64,000 nt of DNA from Escherichia virus TH41 (MT446412.1), one strand, 5' to 3'; counted from the stretch's first letter, positions 2,879-60,914 are shown. Numbers and translations: made by a program. The notes: generated from the letters alone by a model not told the origin.

Positions 2879-3574
2879 ATGAAATTCTCTAAAGACACTA
2901 TCGCAGTTCTGAAAAACTTCACCTCCATTTACTCTGGCATTATGCTTAAGCCGGGTAATACCATCCTGACTCGTTCTGTAACCGGAGCGTCATATGGTGA
3001 ATCTGAAATCAATGATACAATCGACTTTGAAGCTGCAATTTATGACCTGAACGGCTTCTTAAGTATCCTGGGTCTGGTAACTGACCAAGCTGAAGTATCT
3101 CTGGCTGAAGATGCATCGAATATCATTATCAAAGACCAACGTTCAACGATTCACTGGCCTGCAGCTGACCCGAGCACTATCGTGTTCCCTGCTAAGAAGA
3201 TTCCTTTCCCGGTAGCTAAGGTTATCTTCGACCTGAAAGGTAGTGACCTGCAGCAGCTTCTGCGTGTGGCTGGTGGGTTGTCTCTGGATACTTTTGCAAT
3301 CACCAACAAAGACGGTAAGATTGTTATCCATGGTTATAACCAGCTCGAAGATAAAGAATTAGCACGCCCATTGTATTCCCTGGTGTGTGGCGATTACGAA
3401 GGCGATGCAGCGTTTAAATTTATCATTAACAAACTGAACATGAAAATGATTCCGGCTGATTACCGTGTTATGCTTTGGGCGAAAGATGATAAATTTGCTA
3501 CGAAGTTTGAAGGCACACAAGCAAGCTATGTGATTGCAATGGAACAAGGCTCTAGCCACGAATTCCAAGATTAA
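2879..3574 (+). CDS. 45: sliding clamp gp45
   Basis: 231 aa; N-terminus MKFSKDTIAVLKNFTSIYSGIMLK and later blocks closely match T4 gp45. Confidence 0.93.
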   Translation: MKFSKDTIAVLKNFTSIYSGIMLKPGNTILTRSVTGASYGESEINDTIDFEAAIYDLNGFLSILGLVTDQAEVSLAEDASNIIIKDQRSTIHWPAADPSTIVFPAKKIPFPVAKVIFDLKGSDLQQLLRVAGGLSLDTFAITNKDGKIVIHGYNQLEDKELARPLYSLVCGDYEGDAAFKFIINKLNMKMIPADYRVMLWAKDDKFATKFEGTQASYVIAMEQGSSHEFQD

Positions 3575-5851: not shown

Positions 5852-8566
5852 ATGCAAGAATTTTATTTAACTATCGAACAAATCGGTGACAACCTACTCG
5901 AACGATATATTGACAAGAATGGTCATGAACGTGTTCGTGAAATCCCTTATGCTCCATGCTTGTTTATGCACGCCCGCGAAGACCAAGCTGCAAAGTATAC
6001 AGACATCTATAATAAAGGTTGTGTGAAAAAAGAATTCGATTCCATGCGTGATGCATCCCAGTGGATGAAGCGAATGAATGACATGGGTCTCGAAGCTATG
6101 GGTATGGACGACTTTAAACTCGCATACTTGTCCGACCGTTACCCACACGAAATCAAATATGATTCAAGTAAAATCCGTGTTGCTAACTTCGATATCGAGG
6201 TGACATCTCCTGATGGGTTCCCTGAACCGTCTGAAGCACGTCACCCTATTGACGCCCTGACGCACTATGATTCGGTAGACGATAAATTCTATGTCTTTGA
6301 CCTTTTGGGCTCACCATACGCCACTGTGGAGCAATGGTCTATTGATATTGCTGCTAAGCTGCAGGAAGACGGTGGTGATGAAGTCCCGGAAGAAATCCTG
6401 GAAAAAATTGTTTATATGGCTTTCGATTCAGAAGAAGAAATGCTCCAGCAGTATTTGGTATTCTGGAACGAGAAAACTCCGGTTATGTTAACTGGTTGGA
6501 ACATCGAGAAGTTTGATATTCCATATATCTACAACCGCCTTAAAAATGTATTTGGTGAAGCTACAGCAAAACGTCTGAGCCCACATCGTCGTACAAAAGT
6601 TAAGGTCATTAACAACGGCTTTGGCGAAGAACAAGAAATCATTCAGATTCTGGGTATCTCTGTTCTGGATTATCTGGACCTGTATAAAAAGTTCAGCTTC
6701 ACAAACCAACCGTCTTATTCGTTGGATTATGTTGCGGAATCTGAACTGGGTGTTGGTAAACTCCCGTATGATGGCCCGATTTCTAAACTGCGCGAATCAA
6801 ATCACCAGCGGTATATTTCTTATAACATCATCGACGTTTATCGTGTTGTGCAGATTGACCGTAAGCGACAGTTTATTAACCTGAGTCAGTCAATGGGTTA
6901 TTACGCAAAAATGCAGATTCAGTCTGTATTCAGCCCAATCAAAACTTGGGATGCGATTATCTTTAACAGCTTGAAGACTCAAAACAAAGTTATTCCGGAA
7001 ACCAAATCGCATGTTCGCCAATCGTTCCCTGGTGCATTTGTTAAGGAACCTATTCCGAACGCATACAAATATGTAATGAGCTGTGACTTAACATCTCTGT
7101 ATCCGAGCATCATCCGACAGATTAACATCAGTCCAGAAACGATTGCCGGGTCATTTGCGCCAGCCCAGATGTATGAATACATCGCAGGAACTGCTGACCG
7201 TCCATCTGATACATTTAGTTGTGCTCCAAATGGTATGATGTATTTTAAAGATGTTGCGGGTATTATTCCGACAGAAGTCACCAAGGTGTTTAATCAGCGT
7301 AAAGAGCACAAAGGCTATATGCTTGCGGCTCAACGTAATGGTGAACTGATTAAGGAAGCTCTGCGTAATCCAGGAACTGGCACAACCGAACCAGAAGTTG
7401 ATTATCGTCATGACTTTGATGACAATATGAAAACGGCCCTGCATGGTCTGAATCAAACAGTCCTAAATGGTATGCTGTACAAAGCGCAGATGGAAGAAGT
7501 TGCAGGCATGACCGCACAGATTAACCGTAAACTGCTTATCAACAGTTGTTATGGCGCTCTGGGTAATATCTGGTTCCGTTACTTTGACCTGCGAAATGCA
7601 ACCGCGATTACATCTTTCGGACAACTTGCACTGCAGTGGATTGAGCGTAAAGTTAACGAATACTTCGATAGTGTTTGTGGTACAAGCGGTGAAACTTATG
7701 TGTTCTATGGCGATACTGACTCCATTTATATCCAGTGCGATAACCTGATTAAAAAGGTTGGTGGCGAATCTAAATTCCGCGATACAAACCACCTGGTTGA
7801 CTTCATGGACAAGTTTGCGAAAGACCGTCTGGAACCGGCAATCGATAAAGCTTTCCGTGAGCTGGCTGAATACATGAACAACAAACAGCACCTTATGTTT
7901 ATGGACCGTGAGGCGATTGCATGTCCTCCGCTGGGTTCGAAGGGTGTGGGTGGATTCTGGACGGCGAAGAAGCGTTATGCGTTGAACGTGTACGATATGG
8001 AAGGCACACGTTATGCTGTTCCAAAATTGAAAATCATGGGTCTGGAAACTCAAAAGTCGAGTACTCCAAAGGCATGTCAGAAAGCTCTGAAAGAATGCAT
8101 CCGCCGTATGCTGCAAGAAGGTGAAGAATCTCTGCAGACATACTTCAAGGAATTCAATAAGGAATTTAATGAGCTTAACTACATGACCATCGCAGGGGTA
8201 TCATCGGTTAACAACATCCAGAAATATAATGAAGGTGGTTTCCCTGGATTTAAGTGCCCGGCTCATATCAAAGGTGTGCTTGCATATATGCGTGCAACTA
8301 AAGGTCTGAAGACTGTTCCGCAAATCATGGAAGGGGAAAAGGTGTATGTACTTCCTCTTAAAGTCGGCAACCCATTTGGTGAAACCGTGATTGCATGGCC
8401 ATCAGGGATTGAACTCCCGATTGAAATTCGTGACCAAGTCTTGCAGTGGATGGACTACAACACACTGTTCCAGAAGACTTTTGTCAAACCGTTAACAGGT
8501 TTCTCTGAAGCTGCAAAGGTTGATTACGAAAAGAAAGCAACTCTTTTTGATATGTTTGACTTTTAA
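5852..8566 (+). CDS. 43: DNA polymerase gp43 (family B)
   Basis: 904 aa; exonuclease and polymerase motifs (FDIE, YGDTDS); C-terminal clamp-binding tail TLFDMFDF. Confidence 0.95.
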   Translation: MQEFYLTIEQIGDNLLERYIDKNGHERVREIPYAPCLFMHAREDQAAKYTDIYNKGCVKKEFDSMRDASQWMKRMNDMGLEAMGMDDFKLAYLSDRYPHEIKYDSSKIRVANFDIEVTSPDGFPEPSEARHPIDALTHYDSVDDKFYVFDLLGSPYATVEQWSIDIAAKLQEDGGDEVPEEILEKIVYMAFDSEEEMLQQYLVFWNEKTPVMLTGWNIEKFDIPYIYNRLKNVFGEATAKRLSPHRRTKVKVINNGFGEEQEIIQILGISVLDYLDLYKKFSFTNQPSYSLDYVAESELGVGKLPYDGPISKLRESNHQRYISYNIIDVYRVVQIDRKRQFINLSQSMGYYAKMQIQSVFSPIKTWDAIIFNSLKTQNKVIPETKSHVRQSFPGAFVKEPIPNAYKYVMSCDLTSLYPSIIRQINISPETIAGSFAPAQMYEYIAGTADRPSDTFSCAPNGMMYFKDVAGIIPTEVTKVFNQRKEHKGYMLAAQRNGELIKEALRNPGTGTTEPEVDYRHDFDDNMKTALHGLNQTVLNGMLYKAQMEEVAGMTAQINRKLLINSCYGALGNIWFRYFDLRNATAITSFGQLALQWIERKVNEYFDSVCGTSGETYVFYGDTDSIYIQCDNLIKKVGGESKFRDTNHLVDFMDKFAKDRLEPAIDKAFRELAEYMNNKQHLMFMDREAIACPPLGSKGVGGFWTAKKRYALNVYDMEGTRYAVPKLKIMGLETQKSSTPKACQKALKECIRRMLQEGEESLQTYFKEFNKEFNELNYMTIAGVSSVNNIQKYNEGGFPGFKCPAHIKGVLAYMRATKGLKTVPQIMEGEKVYVLPLKVGNPFGETVIAWPSGIELPIEIRDQVLQWMDYNTLFQKTFVKPLTGFSEAAKVDYEKKATLFDMFDF

Positions 8567-10900: not shown

Positions 10901-11234
10901 TATCGATTTATCTGATTTAGATAATTTCGAGAAAGATGCGGAGGGAGCTAAGGCTCCTTCTGTACCTTACTACGAAAAAAGTTTGGAGATTATCCGGCAA
11001 TCCATGGGAACCGTACGACAGGAAATTCTGTTATCACTCCCTGATGGGTCCAGTCACATTGTGTACGTAACCGGAATTAAAATTGAACCATCTGGAAAAG
11101 TTTCAGTTGATTTCGGCACCCCTTCTGAAGACCGCAAAGCGGAGCTTGCAGTGCATGTAGAAAAGTGTGTTACAATGCAAATACAAGATGAAATTGATAA
11201 GATTAAAATGAAAAAGAGGTGGTGGAAGTGGTAG
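10890..11234 (+). CDS. gp40-like protein (114 aa)
   Basis: Size and position between uvsX and 41 as T4 gene 40; sequence not independently recognised. Confidence 0.45.
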   Translation: MMNDIDLSDLDNFEKDAEGAKAPSVPYYEKSLEIIRQSMGTVRQEILLSLPDGSSHIVYVTGIKIEPSGKVSVDFGTPSEDRKAELAVHVEKCVTMQIQDEIDKIKMKKRWWKW

Positions 11235-12658
11235 AAACTATTTTATCCCAGCTACTCTTTAACAAGGAATATTTTGTTAAAGTCTGGCCATATCTGAATA
11301 ACACATATTTTGAAAAGGGTCCAGCAAAGACCCTTTTTAATACGATTAACGAACACGTAAAAGAATATCAAGCGGTACCAACTAAGACTGCACTTGATAT
11401 CGCGCTCGACAGTTCTGACCTTTCTGAAGTCGAATATGAAGGCACAAAGAAACTCTTAGGAGTCCTGGCCGATACTCCAGAAGACCAGGAATGGTTGGTT
11501 AAAGAAACCGAGAAGTATGTACAGAAGTCTGCGATGTTCAATGCCACATCCAGGATTATCGAAATCCAGAGCAATGCCGAACTTCCGAAAGATAAACGTG
11601 ATAAACGAATCCCGGATATTGGTGCTATCCCTGACATCATGCGCGATGCATTGTCTATCTGTTTTGACTCTGCTCTGGGCCATGACTGGTTAAACGATTA
11701 CGAAGCTCGATTCCAGACTTATCTGAACAAATCGAAGAAGGTTCCGTTCCGTATTAACATCCTGAATAAAATCACGAAGGGCGGGGTTGAGTACGGTACA
11801 GAGAACGTTTTACTGGCCGGGACGAACGTCGGCAAATCCCTTGGACTTTGTTCGCTGGCGGCTGACTATCTTCAGACTGGTCATAATGTGCTTTATATAA
11901 GCATGGAAATGGCTGAAGAAGTATGTGCCAAACGTATTGATGCCAACTTGCTGGATGTGTCTCTGGATGATATTGATGAAGGTCATGTGTCATGGGCGGA
12001 ATACAAAAGTAAGATGGAAAAATGGCGTGCAGCCGGGACCCTTGGGACTCTGAAGATAAAACAATATCCAACTGGCGGTGCTCATGCGGATACCTTCCGT
12101 GCATTGCTGAATGAATACAAACTGAAGCAAGGGTTTGTGCCGGATGTGATTATTGTTGACTACCTGGCAATCTGTGCAAGCTCAAGACTGAAAACGTTTA
12201 CCGAAAACAGTTACGGCCTGATTAAGATGGTTGCAGAAGAACTTCGTGGTCTGGCGGTCGAGAAAAATGTGGTCCTGTGGACTGCAGCGCAGACAACCAG
12301 GGGTGCGAACGTTGCAGCTGAGATTGATATGGCTGACATCGCTGAATCTTTTGGTATTGCTCACACGGCCGACTTTATGTTGGGTGTTGTTGAGACCGAA
12401 GAATTCGCTCAAATGGGACTACAGTTAATCAAACAGCTTAAGTCTCGTTACGGCGATAAGAACTACTATAATAAATTCAAGATGGGTGTTAAGAAAGGTA
12501 ATCAGCGCTGGTACGAGGTTGATGATGATTCAGCTCCTAAACAAGGCCCTACGGTTAAAGAAGCCACTGGTGAGATGAATCGCCAGGCTGAAATGAATAG
12601 ACAAACCAGGGTCAACAGGAGCGACCTGGACGACCTTGCTGCTCAAATGAAATTCTAA
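11219..12658 (+). CDS. 41: replicative DNA helicase gp41 (DnaB family)
   Basis: Walker A GTNVGKS, DnaB-like blocks matching T4 gp41; start probably GTG at 11228 (M-V-E-T-I-L) overlapping gp40 stop. Confidence 0.93.
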   Translation: MVEVVETILSQLLFNKEYFVKVWPYLNNTYFEKGPAKTLFNTINEHVKEYQAVPTKTALDIALDSSDLSEVEYEGTKKLLGVLADTPEDQEWLVKETEKYVQKSAMFNATSRIIEIQSNAELPKDKRDKRIPDIGAIPDIMRDALSICFDSALGHDWLNDYEARFQTYLNKSKKVPFRINILNKITKGGVEYGTENVLLAGTNVGKSLGLCSLAADYLQTGHNVLYISMEMAEEVCAKRIDANLLDVSLDDIDEGHVSWAEYKSKMEKWRAAGTLGTLKIKQYPTGGAHADTFRALLNEYKLKQGFVPDVIIVDYLAICASSRLKTFTENSYGLIKMVAEELRGLAVEKNVVLWTAAQTTRGANVAAEIDMADIAESFGIAHTADFMLGVVETEEFAQMGLQLIKQLKSRYGDKNYYNKFKMGVKKGNQRWYEVDDDSAPKQGPTVKEATGEMNRQAEMNRQTRVNRSDLDDLAAQMKF

Positions 12659-12677
12659 AGACCTTCGGGTCTTTTTC
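12658..12677 (+). terminator. intrinsic terminator (TTCG tetraloop)
   Basis: AGACC-TTCG-GGTCT followed by TTTTT right after gene 41 stop. Confidence 0.65.
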
Positions 12678-12685
12678 ATTTAGAG

Positions 12686-12715
12686 GTTTACAACACCATA
12701 AAAAGGGTGTACTAT
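12686..12715 (+). promoter_or_regulatory. early promoter cassette
   Basis: GTTTACA, spacer hairpin ACACC..GGTGT, TACTAT; leader CATCAACTACTGATGAGG. Confidence 0.5.
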
Positions 12716-12746
12716 TATCCCATCAACTACTGATGAGGATAATAAA

Positions 12747-12995
12747 ATGTTATTAGTTAATGTGCAGTACCAGTTCAAATCTGAAGAAGCTCTCCAAAAG
12801 TATGCTGATATTTGTGAGCATAATAAAAGAACAGCTGCCATTGTTGGTCTGAAGCCTTTTAAAATTTTGGATTGCTCCTTGAACAGAGCAAGACGCTGGT
12901 GTAGTGTTGCCTGTCATGCTTCAGTTGAAGGGAATGATTATTTTTTCATTACTTTCAATGCACAAGATTTTCATTTAATTAATGAATTAAAATAG
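12747..12995 (+). CDS. hypothetical protein (82 aa)
   Basis: ORF with RBS, preceded by cassette promoter and leader. Confidence 0.55.
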   Translation: MLLVNVQYQFKSEEALQKYADICEHNKRTAAIVGLKPFKILDCSLNRARRWCSVACHASVEGNDYFFITFNAQDFHLINELK

Positions 12996-13376: not shown

Positions 13377-13383
13377 GTGAATA

Positions 13384-13406
13384 AAGGGGCTTACAGCCCC
13401 TTTTTC
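13384..13406 (+). terminator. intrinsic terminator fused to a -10/leader
   Basis: GGGGCT-TAC-AGCCCC followed by TTTTT, then TATAAT and leader CTATCAACTACTGGAG. Confidence 0.65.
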
Positions 13407-13444
13407 TTATGTTATAATGACTCTATCAACTACTGGAGAATAAA

Positions 13445-13762
13445 ATGAAAACCATTGATTGCAAGGCAGAATACAAAGTTTATTATCATGGGTCAAGTTC
13501 TAATGCTGGAATCCAAAATATGCTTTGTCCTCCTGATGCAACTGGTGTTCTGTCAGAAGTTGGGCGTAAGAAAAATTTAGGGCGTGTGTTTTTTACTGAA
13601 GATATTGGTTTGGCGCGTATCTATGCAGGAAGAGCAGCTCGCTCATATGGAGGAGAACCCCGTCTTTATCGTGTGATTGCACCTGTTGACGTGGTTTGTT
13701 TAAATGATACTAAAGGCGCAACAGTTTATCACGCTGACTGGGCCTTCTGTGAGGAAATCTAA
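13445..13762 (+). CDS. hypothetical protein with PARP/diphtheria-toxin-like H-G-S motif (105 aa)
   Basis: YYHGSSSNAGIQNM then GRVFFTEDIGLARIYAG pattern; see findings. Confidence 0.55.
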   Translation: MKTIDCKAEYKVYYHGSSSNAGIQNMLCPPDATGVLSEVGRKKNLGRVFFTEDIGLARIYAGRAARSYGGEPRLYRVIAPVDVVCLNDTKGATVYHADWAFCEEI

Positions 13763-13966
13763 ATGTATAAATTAGAGAACGTAGTATTTATTGGTTGGTT
13801 TGAAAATGGTAATATGTTTACCAAAGAAACCGCGCTGGATGTCAGTGACAAAAATATGATTGAATGGGTTACAGTGCAGTATGCGGAAGTGAATAATGCG
13901 CTGGTTAAAGCCTTTGTTAATGACAATAAAGTTTTTGAATATGATGCCCGCATTGAGGAAATCTAA
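13763..13966 (+). CDS. hypothetical protein (67 aa)
   Basis: ORF abutting the previous stop; shares NALVKAFVND block with the next ORF. Confidence 0.5.
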   Translation: MYKLENVVFIGWFENGNMFTKETALDVSDKNMIEWVTVQYAEVNNALVKAFVNDNKVFEYDARIEEI

Positions 13967-14308
13967 ATGACTTTTAATCCAGAAGACCGCGTAAAAGTAA
14001 CAATCAAAGTGAGTGCCGTTGGCGTTCCATCTTTTGAGCGCTCAAGTATGTTCCATCCCGCAGGTATTCACTGGTATGTTCAGAAGACTGCTGATAACTA
14101 TAATGCGCTTGTTGAAGCTTTTGTTGATGGCGAGCTAATCCATAAAGTAGACATGCGTAAGGGCACTGCATTGCGTAATCTTATCTTGACCGTTGAAGCT
14201 CAACTGGTAAATGAAGAAATCTGCCTTACTGATATTGAAGCAGCTCTTCATATTGCACGTGCTGAATATTACAAATTGACTGGTTTTTCAGTTGAAGGTG
14301 AAAAATAA
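13967..14308 (+). CDS. hypothetical protein (113 aa)
   Basis: ORF; NALVEAFVDG block paralogous to the previous ORF. Confidence 0.55.
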   Translation: MTFNPEDRVKVTIKVSAVGVPSFERSSMFHPAGIHWYVQKTADNYNALVEAFVDGELIHKVDMRKGTALRNLILTVEAQLVNEEICLTDIEAALHIARAEYYKLTGFSVEGEK

Positions 14309-14338
14309 GTGTACATCAAAGGGGTAATGCAGTATATT
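14309..14338 (+). promoter_or_regulatory. early promoter cassette
   Basis: GTGTACA, 17 nt, TATATT; leader CTATCAACTACTGAGGAG. Confidence 0.6.
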
Positions 14339-14366
14339 ATCCCTATCAACTACTGAGGAGATTGAA

Positions 14367-14660
14367 ATGAAAAAGTTATTAATCGCAGCAATTCTTACCG
14401 TAGCATCATGTGGTACAGCCCCAGTTACTGCTGGGCTTGATAAAGACCTTTGTGAGTGGTCCATGACTGCGGACCAGACTGATGTTGAACACCAGATTTA
14501 TGCTGACATCATGAACATTACTAAACGTGACCACCCAGATATGGTTAAAGAAGTATCTGACCAACTGGCTTCTGGTGACGTTATGCAGTATAACTATGTT
14601 CTGTATTGCGATGCTTCATTTGACAACAGCAAGATTGTTCAATGGGTTACAGGTGAATAA
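14367..14660 (+). CDS. putative lipoprotein (97 aa)
   Basis: Signal peptide with lipobox TVASC. Confidence 0.55.
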   Translation: MKKLLIAAILTVASCGTAPVTAGLDKDLCEWSMTADQTDVEHQIYADIMNITKRDHPDMVKEVSDQLASGDVMQYNYVLYCDASFDNSKIVQWVTGE

Positions 14661-14661
14661 A

Positions 14662-15102
14662 ATGATTAACAGAAATTTAGTTATCAAAAAACTTCGTTGT
14701 AAAAATCAAAATGCACAAGCATACAGGATGTTTTGGAGCGACGAACCCATTCAATACCTGGGTTATTTTCTTGTTGATAGTGATAATAGAATTACGTTTG
14801 CTCATAAACTTCTTAACAAAGAATTAAACCATTGGCAAGAACTTATTGCGGTCAAGTCTAAATTATTTTCGCGCAATACAATGCACCAATTGGTTTATTT
14901 TTTCGCTGACGGTATTCCTGACAAGGTTGAGTTTGATGGGTTTGAATTTAAAGACATCACCCCTGATAATGAATTGAATGACAGTATTGTTAATATGGGT
15001 ATCCCGGGTAAGTACATCAAAAACAGTCTTTTGAAACTTCTGGAAACCCCTGTATATTCAGTTGACGACCAGATTTTTAATGCCTTCATGAAGCGAGATT
15101 AG
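14662..15102 (+). CDS. hypothetical protein (146 aa) with C-terminal DDQIFNAFMKRD tail
   Basis: ATG at 14662 (track ORF 14527 is a GTG-extended version overlapping the lipoprotein); tail shared with next ORF. Confidence 0.55.
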   Translation: MINRNLVIKKLRCKNQNAQAYRMFWSDEPIQYLGYFLVDSDNRITFAHKLLNKELNHWQELIAVKSKLFSRNTMHQLVYFFADGIPDKVEFDGFEFKDITPDNELNDSIVNMGIPGKYIKNSLLKLLETPVYSVDDQIFNAFMKRD

Positions 15103-15103
15103 T

Positions 15104-15463
15104 ATGAGTTATTATAATTTTCTGAATTTTGAACTGGCGAGCAATAATGATGGTAATGCTCATTATGAATTTCGTGAGCCACGGTTTAATCAAGCGATTG
15201 GTTATATTATCGTCAAAGATGATGTTATCATAAAGGCTCGCTCATTTATGGTAATGAATGGACCTTATGAAGATACTCGCGGCTATCCATTTGATAAAAA
15301 GAATGTGCGCGATTGTGCAGCATGGATAACCGGAAACCCCGAAATTGGGGTCATGATATCTACTGAAGCGAATGACATTCTGGAAGGGGTTTGGGCCAAA
15401 GCTCAAGAATCGTCTATTGCTATTGACGACCAGATTTTTAATGCCTTCATGAAACGAGGTTAA
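15104..15463 (+). CDS. hypothetical protein (119 aa) with C-terminal DDQIFNAFMKRG tail
   Basis: ORF; last about 36 nt nearly identical to the 3' end of the preceding gene. Confidence 0.55.
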   Translation: MSYYNFLNFELASNNDGNAHYEFREPRFNQAIGYIIVKDDVIIKARSFMVMNGPYEDTRGYPFDKKNVRDCAAWITGNPEIGVMISTEANDILEGVWAKAQESSIAIDDQIFNAFMKRG

Positions 15464-15464
15464 T

Positions 15465-15686
15465 ATGTTTGTTTTAACTCAATTTTCTAAAGCAACATAT
15501 AGCTACTCTTGTCAATGGGAAGTCTTCATTGATACACCGTCTCCCAAGTATGGAGTTTTCGGACGAGTAACTACACAAGCTTATGTTGCGCGACCAACCA
15601 AACGTCAGATTCGTAAGCTTAAAAAGGCGCATCGCCAACTGATTAAAAGAAGGGAACAATATGAGTGCAATGTGTACGGGCTCTAA
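15465..15686 (+). CDS. hypothetical protein (73 aa, basic C-terminus)
   Basis: ORF starting 2 nt after the previous stop. Confidence 0.45.
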   Translation: MFVLTQFSKATYSYSCQWEVFIDTPSPKYGVFGRVTTQAYVARPTKRQIRKLKKAHRQLIKRREQYECNVYGL

Positions 15687-16071: not shown

Positions 16072-17100
16072 ATGTCATATATTGATAAAGAATTTGCGGT
16101 TAGAGCTTTATCGTATCAACCACGTTATAGAGAAGTCACCGGGAGCACATTTAAAGCAAACTGTCGTTGCAAGGTTTGTGGGGACTCCCAGAAAGATTCA
16201 CACAAGGCTCGATTCTGGGCGTATACTAATCCGGCTGATGGCGCGGTTTACGTGAAATGTTTTAACTGTGACTACTCCACGCATATAAGCAAATACATAA
16301 AAGAGTTTGAGCCGGATTTACACTGGGAATATATGGTTGAGAAGTATAAGGAGAATGCCTTTGGCAGACAACGTAATGAAGTTGCCGAAACTCCGAAAGA
16401 ACCAGAAAAAACTCCGGTTATCGAAGAGCTTGCTTTTTGTGAAAGACTCGATACTTTACCAGAAGCGCATCCTATAATTAAGTATGTAAAAAGTCGGTGT
16501 ATTCCTAGCAATGTTTGGAACCGGTTATGGTTTACAAACAAATGGCCTGCATTAGTTAACTCCGTTAATCCTGGGACGTATAAGAATGAAACGAATGAAC
16601 CACGCTTGGTTATTCCTATCTTCAACGGCAAAAAAGAAATCGAATCTTTCCAAGGACGAGCTCTTCGCAAAGATGCACCACAAAAATATATCACAATCAA
16701 AGCTCACCCAGAAGCTTCCAAAGTCTATGGTGTAGACAAGATTGATGAGCGCAAGCGCGTGTGGGTAATGGAAGGTCCGATTGATAGTTTGTTTATCCCT
16801 AACAGCATTGCGATAACTGGTGGAACATTGTCATTGGAAGCCGTTCCTTATCCAGAAACCAGAGTATGGGTAATGGACAACGAACCAAGACATCCGGATA
16901 CGATTAAACGTATGAAGAAGCTCGTTGAAGCTGGCGAAGCTGTTATGTTCTGGGACAATGCACCATGGCATACGAAAGACATAAATGAGATGGTTAAATC
17001 AGAAGGAGCAACCCCTGAACAAATCGAATCATATATGGCTGATAACGTTGCCCAAGGATTGATGGCGAGAATGCGACTTTCGAAGTACGCAAAAGTTTAG
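16072..17100 (+). CDS. 61: DNA primase gp61
   Basis: 342 aa as in T4; N-terminal zinc ribbon CRCKVCGDS...CFNCDYS plus TOPRIM-like core. Confidence 0.93.
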   Translation: MSYIDKEFAVRALSYQPRYREVTGSTFKANCRCKVCGDSQKDSHKARFWAYTNPADGAVYVKCFNCDYSTHISKYIKEFEPDLHWEYMVEKYKENAFGRQRNEVAETPKEPEKTPVIEELAFCERLDTLPEAHPIIKYVKSRCIPSNVWNRLWFTNKWPALVNSVNPGTYKNETNEPRLVIPIFNGKKEIESFQGRALRKDAPQKYITIKAHPEASKVYGVDKIDERKRVWVMEGPIDSLFIPNSIAITGGTLSLEAVPYPETRVWVMDNEPRHPDTIKRMKKLVEAGEAVMFWDNAPWHTKDINEMVKSEGATPEQIESYMADNVAQGLMARMRLSKYAKV

Positions 17101-54624: not shown

Positions 54625-54894
54625 ATGAAAGAGAAAAAAGTGAAAGTTGAATTTTGTCCTGATACTCATGGTGCTGAACTGGCCAAGCTGATTAAAGCTG
54701 CTTCCGATACCAAATTAAAAATGGAAGCATATGCAGACGAAATTAAAGACCTTAAAGACAAGGCAAAAACTGAATTAGGTGTTGACGGTAAGATGTTCAA
54801 TACACAGCTCGGCCTGTATCATAAAGGCACTCGTGAGCGTTTTGAAGATGAAAAAACCGAAGCTGTGGAGCTCTATGATGTCCTCTTTAGTTAA
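54625..54894 (+). CDS. dsbA: DsbA-like dsDNA-binding late-transcription protein
   Basis: 89 aa as in T4 DsbA; position between rnh and 33. Confidence 0.6.
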   Translation: MKEKKVKVEFCPDTHGAELAKLIKAASDTKLKMEAYADEIKDLKDKAKTELGVDGKMFNTQLGLYHKGTRERFEDEKTEAVELYDVLFS

Positions 54895-55168
54895 TTTTGA
54901 TACACAGAAAACTGAATCGCCTTCCGGGGCGATTAGTAAGCAGCAAAACGGGCTTGATATTGAAGCCATGGTCGAGACAACTGAAATGTCTTATCTGGAA
55001 GCTGCGACTGCCTGGTTGGAAGAACGTGGAATTCCTGAAGGCAATTTTGCGCGATATATCCCTGCGGGAATCGTCGATAAGATTATGAATGAAGCATATG
55101 ATGATAACTTGCTTCGTCCGAGTATGTCTCGTACACAGAAAACTAATACGCTGGACTTTTTGTTATGA
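54875..55168 (+). CDS. 33: late transcription co-activator gp33
   Basis: ORF 54779..55168 with ATG at 54875 overlapping dsbA end; C-terminal TLDFLL tail; position before 59. Confidence 0.5.
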   Translation: MMSSLVNFDTQKTESPSGAISKQQNGLDIEAMVETTEMSYLEAATAWLEERGIPEGNFARYIPAGIVDKIMNEAYDDNLLRPSMSRTQKTNTLDFLL

Positions 55169-60614: not shown

Positions 60615-60914
60615 ATGAAAGCCTGTCGGGTTGTTAACAAATATCAATCCGACTTTGATGTGAATATTCAACGGGGTACCATGTGGGGAAATCCATATAA
60701 AGATGGTACCCGAGAAGAAAACATAAAGAACTTTAAAGAATATTTCATAGCAAAGATTAAATCGGGTGAAATCAAAAGAGAACATCTTGAAACTCTCCGC
60801 GGAATGCGATTAGCCTGCACATGCAAACCGAAGTCATGTCATGGCGACGTTATCGCTCTGGTCGTTAACAAACTTTTCAAAGACACCTTTTCGCTCGAGG
60901 ATTTGGGTACATAA
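60615..60914 (+). CDS. hypothetical Cys-containing protein (99 aa)
   Basis: ORF; GNPYKDG and CTCKPKSCHGD motifs. Confidence 0.5.
   Translation: MKACRVVNKYQSDFDVNIQRGTMWGNPYKDGTREENIKNFKEYFIAKIKSGEIKREHLETLRGMRLACTCKPKSCHGDVIALVVNKLFKDTFSLEDLGT

Follow-up and report, generated by a model that had tools for sequence, protein, structure and literature searches.

Why do two adjacent phage genes, whose products seem otherwise dissimilar, end in the same C-terminal peptide? The question is raised by two open reading frames, ORF-A and ORF-B, of Escherichia virus TH41 (MT446412.1), of which a stretch of 64,000 nucleotides, hereafter the window, was analysed as a whole. Their products terminate in ...VYSVDDQIFNAFMKRD and ...IAIDDQIFNAFMKRG, respectively, and the tail that they have in common reads DDQIFNAFMKRG as a peptide. 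A sequence-only reading of this DNA had treated the two genes as unrelated and had proposed that a duplication transplanted a clamp-docking peptide onto accessory proteins, with a recombination hotspot as the alternative.

The duplicated tail and its genomic setting

The repetition of the tail is confirmed. The exact repeat is 31 nt long (15062-15092 = 15423-15453) and extends, past the stop and into the ATG with which the following gene begins, to the 45-nt copies listed in Table 1. It appeared in none of 100 shuffled windows, and no third copy with three or fewer mismatches is present in the window. The sequence-only reading had counted a single difference over the 36 terminal coding nucleotides; the near-identity stands, but the count does not, as two bases differ, one synonymously (AAG/AAA) and one exchanging D and G (GAT/GGT). 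A possible third copy of the tail within sp (VEHQIYADIMNITKRD, 14485-14529, in frame, 28/45 nt) was rejected as a chance match: this level is reached by 4% of Markov-shuffled windows, and an equal match occurs at 60824 on the minus strand. The tail consensus, DDQIFNAFM[KN][RK][GD], comprises the 12 C-terminal residues. Both ORFs and all full-length members examined from the loci end in DDQIFNAFM, three further residues and a stop. Among the protein-database matches only two short fragments depart from the tail, P0049 (DVQIFNAFM) and P0008 (AFL, with one extra residue).

Table 1. Positions in the window of the tail-bearing genes, the direct repeat and the genes to which the text refers
Feature	Position	Strand	Remarks
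gp45 clamp	2879-3574		
gp41 helicase	11219-12658	+	
Dmd	13763-13966	+	
sp (spackle)	14367-14660	+	upstream limit of the slot; Pfam T4_Spackle, E 2.5e-43
ORF-A, 146 aa	14662-15102	+	JS98 orf30 / VR7 ORF039 family, phrog_8539
Tail of ORF-A, VDDQIFNAFMKRD	15061-15099	+	followed by stop TAG, 15100-15102
Direct repeat copy 1, 45 nt	15062-15106	+	spans tail codons, stop and the ATG of the next gene
ORF-B, 119 aa	15104-15463	+	phrog_4122, RB32ORF033c type; annotated '61.2' in VR7 and PP01
Tail of ORF-B, IDDQIFNAFMKRG	15422-15460	+	followed by stop TAA, 15461-15463
Direct repeat copy 2	15423-15467	+	42/45 nt identical to copy 1, 361 nt downstream of it
TifA-like gene (T4 gp61.4 family, DUF7279)	15465-15686	+	downstream neighbour; ATG inside repeat copy 2
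gp61 primase	16072-17100	+	

Sequence comparison places the source phage among the T-even phages, in the genus Gaprivervirus; the window shares 98% identity with phage UPEC01 and 87-95% with VR7, SP18 and VR20. The order of genes on the plus strand is gp41, Dmd, sp, ORF-A, ORF-B, the DUF7279 gene, 61.1 and gp61 primase. In T-even phages the interval between genes 41 and 61 has been described as an 'anti-TA island' that contains dmd (anti-RnlA), tifA/61.4 (anti-ToxN) and adfA/61.2 (PMC9391042). The DUF7279 gene of the window encodes a TifA-like protein with 41% identity to T4 gp61.4 (E 2e-13; Pfam DUF7279), a gene that is without counterpart in MN01. ORF-A and ORF-B lie in the slot of AdfA, downstream of sp and upstream of 61.1 and the primase gene 61, and in all loci whose gene order was examined a tail-bearing gene directly follows sp. 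The content of this slot differs among phages: T4 carries AdfA only and PP01 an ORF-B type only; CrRp10 and the metagenomic contig L022 have AdfA plus an ORF-B type; JS98 (Dhakavirus) and VR26 have an ORF-A type only; and the present window, VR7 and SP18 combine an ORF-A type with an ORF-B type.

Other repeated elements are found upstream of the slot. A 16-nt junction, TGAGGAAATCTAAATG, occurs identically at 13750-13765 and 13954-13969, after two adjacent genes ending in ...EEI*, a smaller instance of neighbouring genes with a common end; the ORFs around it are 13445-13762, 13763-13966 (Dmd) and 13967-14308. Dmd and the ORF that follows it (13967-14308) have a common NALV[KE]AFV segment, 87% identical over 30 nt, which suggests that the two are tandem paralogues. 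Leader boxes of the form TAT..ATCAACTACTG..GAG..ATG are present three times (12657-12747, 13383-13450 and 14333-14370), and hairpin-plus-promoter-like cassettes at 12657-12715 and 13383-13418 resemble the promoter/stem-loop cassettes of T4-type variable regions.

ORF-A and ORF-B probably belong with AdfA

Few phage inhibitors of DarT toxins are known, and AdfA is among them. The T4 protein and the R164H form of the RB69 protein associate with the DarT1 ADP-ribosyltransferase toxin and neutralise it, and a single residue of the body, R164H in RB69, is enough to turn on the association (PMC11257639). T4 gp61.2 (AdfA) scores 455 bits on Pfam PF23813 and ends in ...SIDDQIFNAFMNRG, and the reverse primer for RB69 adfA printed in PMC11257639 back-translates, in our own reading, to IFNAFMNRG*. 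Both ORF-A and ORF-B thus carry the hallmark C-terminus of AdfA/gp61.2, and their earlier description as unrelated genes does not hold. Residues 101-119 of ORF-B match positions 193-211 of the 211 positions of the PF23813 profile (E 5.6e-5), a tail-only match whose 23.0 bits fall below the gathering cut-off of 27 bits. Tequatrovirus homologues are 46-50% identical to ORF-B, and one of them, the PP01 orthologue, scores 34.1 bits over profile positions 113-211. Since this orthologue passes the Pfam cut-off, ORF-B is by transitivity homologous to the C-terminal half of AdfA beyond the tail; in our reading it is a true single-module relative of AdfA. ORF-A gives no AdfA match to PF23813 at E<=1 and does not reach the cut-off, and its JS98 homologue and P0043 score 16.3-16.4 bits through the tail only. 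P0043 is a distant homologue of ORF-A, with 34% identity, in which the last 35 aa are kept. Neither ORF has the two-module architecture of about 210 aa: at 146 aa and 119 aa, each is predicted by AF2 to contain one beta-meander module.

How similar are the bodies that carry the tail? By BLASTP only the 13-residue tail aligns, in agreement with the earlier view of the proteins as otherwise dissimilar, but more sensitive comparisons detect weak similarity between the bodies. In hhalign profile-profile comparisons made with the 14-residue tail removed, ORF-B matches the N-half of AdfA with an E of 9e-4 and the C-half with 3.5e-3, while ORF-A matches ORF-B with 0.018 and AdfA with 0.07-0.17; P0043 matches ORF-A with 4e-13 and the AdfA halves with 3e-3. 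A hairpin, G-h-h-h-V-K-D-N-x-I, is found in the cross-family hhalign alignments, except the short one between ORF-A and whole AdfA. Local alignments compared with shuffles reach z = 3 to 5.7 for many cross-family pairs (z about 3 for the ORF-A body against AdfA), and the N-half of T4 AdfA aligns to its C-half with z 4.6. When a viral library was searched by Foldseek with the ORF-B model, an ORF-A-family protein of VR25 ranked second (E 5e-4) and a 212-aa protein fourth; the reciprocal search with the ORF-A model returned its own family only. On these comparisons ORF-A is probably a very divergent relative of AdfA, and all of the modules look like mutual distant relatives. Assigning ORF-A to the N-half and ORF-B to the C-half of a split AdfA was considered and rejected, as the pairwise scores give no consistent assignment to one half. 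The answer to the initial question would be that the two neighbours share a tail because both are members of the fast-evolving AdfA family, in which the tail is invariant. Variation is also visible inside single genes: the ORF-A homologue of VR7 (L003 1828-2265) and of VR25 is 70-71% identical to window 14662-15102, and its residues ~57-115 are replaced between conserved ends, a sign of mosaicism inside the gene body.

A predicted terminal helix on a variable linker

The AF2 models of ORF-A (mean pLDDT 61) and ORF-B (mean pLDDT 68) are of moderate quality and were built from shallow alignments. They display the same order of elements, a four-strand meander, a helix, a strand, a low-confidence linker and a terminal helix; in ORF-A the order reads b1-b4, helices, b5, and the linker that follows is long. 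Linker and tail have a pLDDT of 26-55 across both models (26-49 in ORF-A), values that, because the alignments are shallow, may reflect poor data instead of flexibility. The linkers are 11 to ~40 aa long, with indels just upstream of the tail. The models suggest that the tail is a tethered docking helix. For AdfA and ORF-B no solved structures were found. A match between the ORF-B linker and the CW_7 repeats of Cpl-7 lysozyme (5i8l) was discarded: the score is inflated by three identical repeats, with a per-repeat i-E of ~2, and the match is treated as chance since the segment is not conserved in the Tequatrovirus homologues of ORF-B.

Might the tail instead be an integral structural element that is kept for the sake of stability, perhaps closing the fold as its final helix or mediating dimerisation? 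Both AF2 models predict a helical tail, and homology of the bodies would make a shared structural helix the most economical explanation. However, a helix belonging to the core should change along with the body, and these bodies are by now too divergent for BLAST to detect; the tail has nevertheless stayed invariant. The difference in linker length and the position of the indels, directly upstream of the tail, also fit poorly with a helix packed into the fold, the pLDDT is lowest over the linker and tail, and the helical hydrophobic moment of the tail does not exceed that of shuffled sequence. We regard a structural helix as possible, albeit rather unlikely.

The tail is confined to one group of genes

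How far does the tail spread? A 20-residue query located it at 905 places in 708 phage records, nearly all from coliphage-type T-even phages; it follows from these counts that many records hold two copies. A degenerate DNA pattern for DDQIFNAFM retrieved 16 loci from IMG/VR, with three body types: the ORF-A type of ~145 aa, the ORF-B type of ~118 aa and AdfA of 208-216 aa. An exhaustive HMMER search of 1.84 billion cluster representatives with a profile of the tail returned 9 proteins only, which fall into ~7 body clusters: the ORF-A type, P0043, two ORF-B types (Gaprivervirus and Tequatrovirus), AdfA, P0052 and P0053. The same tail forms the C-terminus of all of them. P0052 and P0053 represent new body types, and on their contigs both genes are located directly after sp. 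Word-index protein searches yielded close relatives or short fragments only. A tail that is found on one gene group, in one slot, is a hallmark of that group and not a tag scattered over accessory proteins; the idea of a portable tag on assorted accessory proteins is not supported by its confinement to the AdfA group in the 1.84 billion representatives. Shortened forms occur as well: on Tequatrovirus contigs of 135-168 kb, the 33-aa ORFs P0045-P0047 are truncated ORF-B-type remnants that keep the tail. P0046 reads MLSDEINDLLNDAEKVAIPSIDDQIFNAFMNRG, and P0045 and P0047 differ from it at no more than four linker positions.

Selection acts on the peptide

What does selection preserve, the DNA or the peptide that it encodes? 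The comparison took in 19 different DNA sequences that encode the tail, drawn from four genera and every body type. Synonymous variation is present in seven of the nine invariant codons (GAC/GAT twice, CAG/CAA, ATT/ATA, AAT/AAC, GCC/GCT/GCA and TTC/TTT) and non-synonymous variation in none of the nine. Variation of this exclusively synonymous kind indicates purifying selection on the peptide and not on the DNA. It is the reverse of what would be expected if the repeat were a DNA or RNA feature only, be it a recombination junction, a ribosome-binding region or a regulatory element, and the peptide had no role. The repeat does border an exact 361-nt indel, and a Shine-Dalgarno sequence (GAGG), the stop codon and the ATG that follows all fall within its last 12 nt, an arrangement that may constrain the final two codons; the overlap with these signals is limited to the last two codons of the tail. 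A promoter, a terminator or an RNA structure in the repeat was sought and rejected. The promoter-like site closest to the tail-coding repeats (15031-15058) stops just upstream of copy 1 and none spans them, and no stable RNA fold was found, the repeats folding no better than shuffled sequence (z +1.0 and -0.24). We judge an explanation at the level of DNA or RNA alone to be highly improbable. A recent transplant of the tail is likewise at odds with a peptide that is invariant across full-length members and synonymously varied between genera.

Probable recombination at the tail-coding repeat

A constrained peptide does not preclude a role for its coding DNA, and the alternative offered by the sequence-only reading, a recombination site, has gained support. 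Relative to the window, VR26 and JS98 are short of exactly one 361-nt repeat unit, and in relatives the same repeat bounds this exact gain or loss of ORF-B. In T4, segments are amplified and deleted through homologies down to 6-10 bp (PMC9391042). Synonymous variants moreover form a mosaic across the two tails. Agreement in synonymous state is commoner between the two tails of a single genome than between orthologous tails from different genera, and the longest exact run that the two tails of a genome have in common ranges from 11 to 37 nt across genomes. Among the Gapriverviruses it measures 11 nt in MN01, 14 nt in VR7 and VR25, 31 nt in the window and TH22, and 37 nt in VR20 and UPEC01. In the Tequatrovirus CrRp10 the tails of AdfA and of the ORF-B type are identical over 37 nt, and in contig L022 both tails use the rare GAT for their second Asp. 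CAA...TTT is found in the ORF-A tails of VR7, VR25, VR26 and MN01; in the window, VR20, UPEC01 and TH22 the ORF-A tail has CAG...TTC, as in the ORF-B type, and SP18 is intermediate. From this mosaic of synonymous states, which extends over about a dozen genomes, we infer that gene conversion or crossing-over takes place inside the tails; gene conversion between tandem tails would explain the 31-nt identity in the window.

A further junction was noted in PP01, where 12 nt separate the stop codon of sp from the ORF-B-type gene (L004 1732-1743). This stretch, TTAGAGGTTAGT, matches the last bases of the adfA tail, AATAGAGGTTAAT, and looks like the scar of an adfA deletion.

Does the tail dock onto the sliding clamp?

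According to the sequence-only reading, the tail may be a docking peptide for the gp45 sliding clamp, duplicated onto two unrelated accessory proteins. Such a peptide would bring them to the replication fork. The claimed echo of the gp43 tail is real in part. In the window gp43 ends in TLFDMFDF (at 8566), and IFNAF agrees with the LFDMF of this RB69-type end at 3 of 5 positions. The T4 clamp-binding motifs given in the supplement of PMC7892883, namely NTLDFLL (gp33), PSLDFLYE (gp55) and EGLDFLFD (ligase), have the consensus LDFL[FLY], which is missed by the tail, QIFNAFMKRG; the gp33 frame of this same window ends in TLDFLL (at 55168). What is supported is that constraint keeps the tail on proteins whose bodies diverge. 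In layout it is akin to the gp45-binding epitopes of gp55 and gp33: a folded core leads, through a divergent and probably unstructured linker of variable length, to a C-terminal segment that is acidic, hydrophobic and conserved; in gp55 the clamp epitope is joined through just such a divergent linker (PMC2988020). In addition, PMC7003065 describes DarT as modifying single-stranded DNA, and an inhibitor placed at the fork would make sense against a toxin of this kind. Nevertheless, known clamp motifs vary between proteins and between phages, whereas the tail keeps at least nine residues unchanged, the polar D, D, Q and N among them, in T4 and in RB69-type (Mosigvirus) phages. Its last residues are basic (KRG or NRG), whereas clamp epitopes are acidic, and the tail is neither a recent transplant nor present on any other kind of protein. 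Duplication of a clamp-docking peptide onto unrelated proteins is in our estimation quite unlikely. Elsewhere in the window, an 89-aa ORF at 54625-54894, presumably dsbA from its T4 position and its size, ends in ...ELYDVLFS, a hydrophobic and acidic C-terminus that is loosely like the clamp-binding ends of gp33 and gp43.

A broader form of fork placement can be envisaged, in which the tail anchors interchangeable toxin-recognising modules, of the AdfA, ORF-A, ORF-B and other types, to one fixed partner at the fork, gp45 or another replisome protein, and its coding DNA doubles as a splice site for the swapping of modules. We consider this unlikely. If it were true, anti-toxin activity would be concentrated at exposed single-stranded phage DNA, and co-infecting phages would swap or stack modules through the tail-coding DNA.

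Alternatively, the tail might be directed at the toxin itself, as a constant 'warhead' against DarT-type toxins that contacts their conserved cleft, catalytic or DNA-binding, while the body tunes affinity to each toxin variant. An active site that never varies would hold the element facing it constant, and the extreme conservation of the tail beside a hypervariable body would then be accounted for; there is also a precedent in the C-terminal domain of DarG, which reportedly inhibits DarT by mimicry of single-stranded DNA. On the other hand, the sole known specificity residue, RB69 residue 164, is situated in a helix of the module ~40 residues upstream of the tail, and DarT as the target of the ORF-A and ORF-B types is an assumption. 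A warhead is a possibility that we would place on the unlikely side.

A model for the tandem modules

Based on these comparisons, we propose a model to rationalize the shared tail. It is likely, in our view, that ORF-A and ORF-B are tandem single-module members of the AdfA group, with an invariant tail that docks onto a constant partner and a tail-coding repeat that mediates recombination. Each member would consist of a hypervariable, beta-rich module of ~90-130 aa, a linker of variable length and the invariant C-terminal peptide. Target recognition would fall to the variable module, the targets being variable too: toxins, as in the case of AdfA, of the DarT type or of others. The constant tail, a helix on a tether, would dock onto a single, unchanging partner. 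As this partner we would first consider the toxin that is targeted, through its conserved core, or a protein of the replisome such as the gp45 clamp; self-association comes second. The direct repeat of 31-45 nt that encodes the tail would serve as a substrate for homologous recombination, and recombination at this repeat may result both in gene conversion between tandem tails and in the precise gain or loss of the 361-nt ORF-B cassette.

What would such an arrangement mean for the T-even phages? AdfA would be one form of a modular family, in which a hypervariable body is joined to an invariant 12-residue tail, and in T-even phages one fixed position of the anti-toxin island would be occupied by a single cassette of this kind or by two. 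The tail after sp offers a simple sequence handle for candidate anti-defence modules in T-even genomes. The locus also illustrates clearly how a coding repeat under functional constraint can act as a homology arm for the gain, loss and conversion of cassettes, and the finding opens direct experiments on the mechanism of AdfA. AdfA and the anti-TA island are already published. The shared tail across body types and the tandem single-module forms are apparently new: no description of them, and no occurrence of the motif string, was found in the literature searched, and NCBIfam contains no model for these proteins.

Relation to known systems

The nearest known system is AdfA itself (gp61.2, PF23813). 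It has the same C-terminal tail, DDQIFNAFM[NK][RK]G, and the same slot directly after sp as ORF-A and ORF-B, and it resides with dmd and tifA in the same anti-toxin island. Anti-DarT activity is known only for the T4 and RB69(R164H) alleles of AdfA. AdfA is ~208-216 aa long and apparently contains two copies of the module; ORF-A and ORF-B, in contrast, have one module each and are arranged in tandem. A different kind of repeated element is represented by the PeSL cassettes of T4-type phages, which consist of an early promoter and a stem-loop between genes. The repeat described here is not of this type, as it is coding, no promoter-like site spans it and its RNA does not fold better than shuffled sequence.

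The clamp-binding motifs of gp43, gp33, gp55 and ligase resemble the tail in being short hydrophobic and acidic segments at or near the C-terminus, preceded by a divergent linker, and the IFNAF of the tail is locally similar to LFDMF. Unlike these motifs, the tail is longer, is invariant, ends in basic residues and does not match LDFL[FLY]. With the anti-TA island (PMC9391042) the likeness is one of content and of dynamics: between gp41 and gp61 the window holds Dmd, sp, the two tail-bearing genes and a TifA homologue, and the gene content changes through recombination at short repeats. In the island these repeats are chance microhomologies of 6-10 bp, whereas the homology at the present locus is a coding repeat of 31-45 nt, maintained by selection on the peptide that it encodes.
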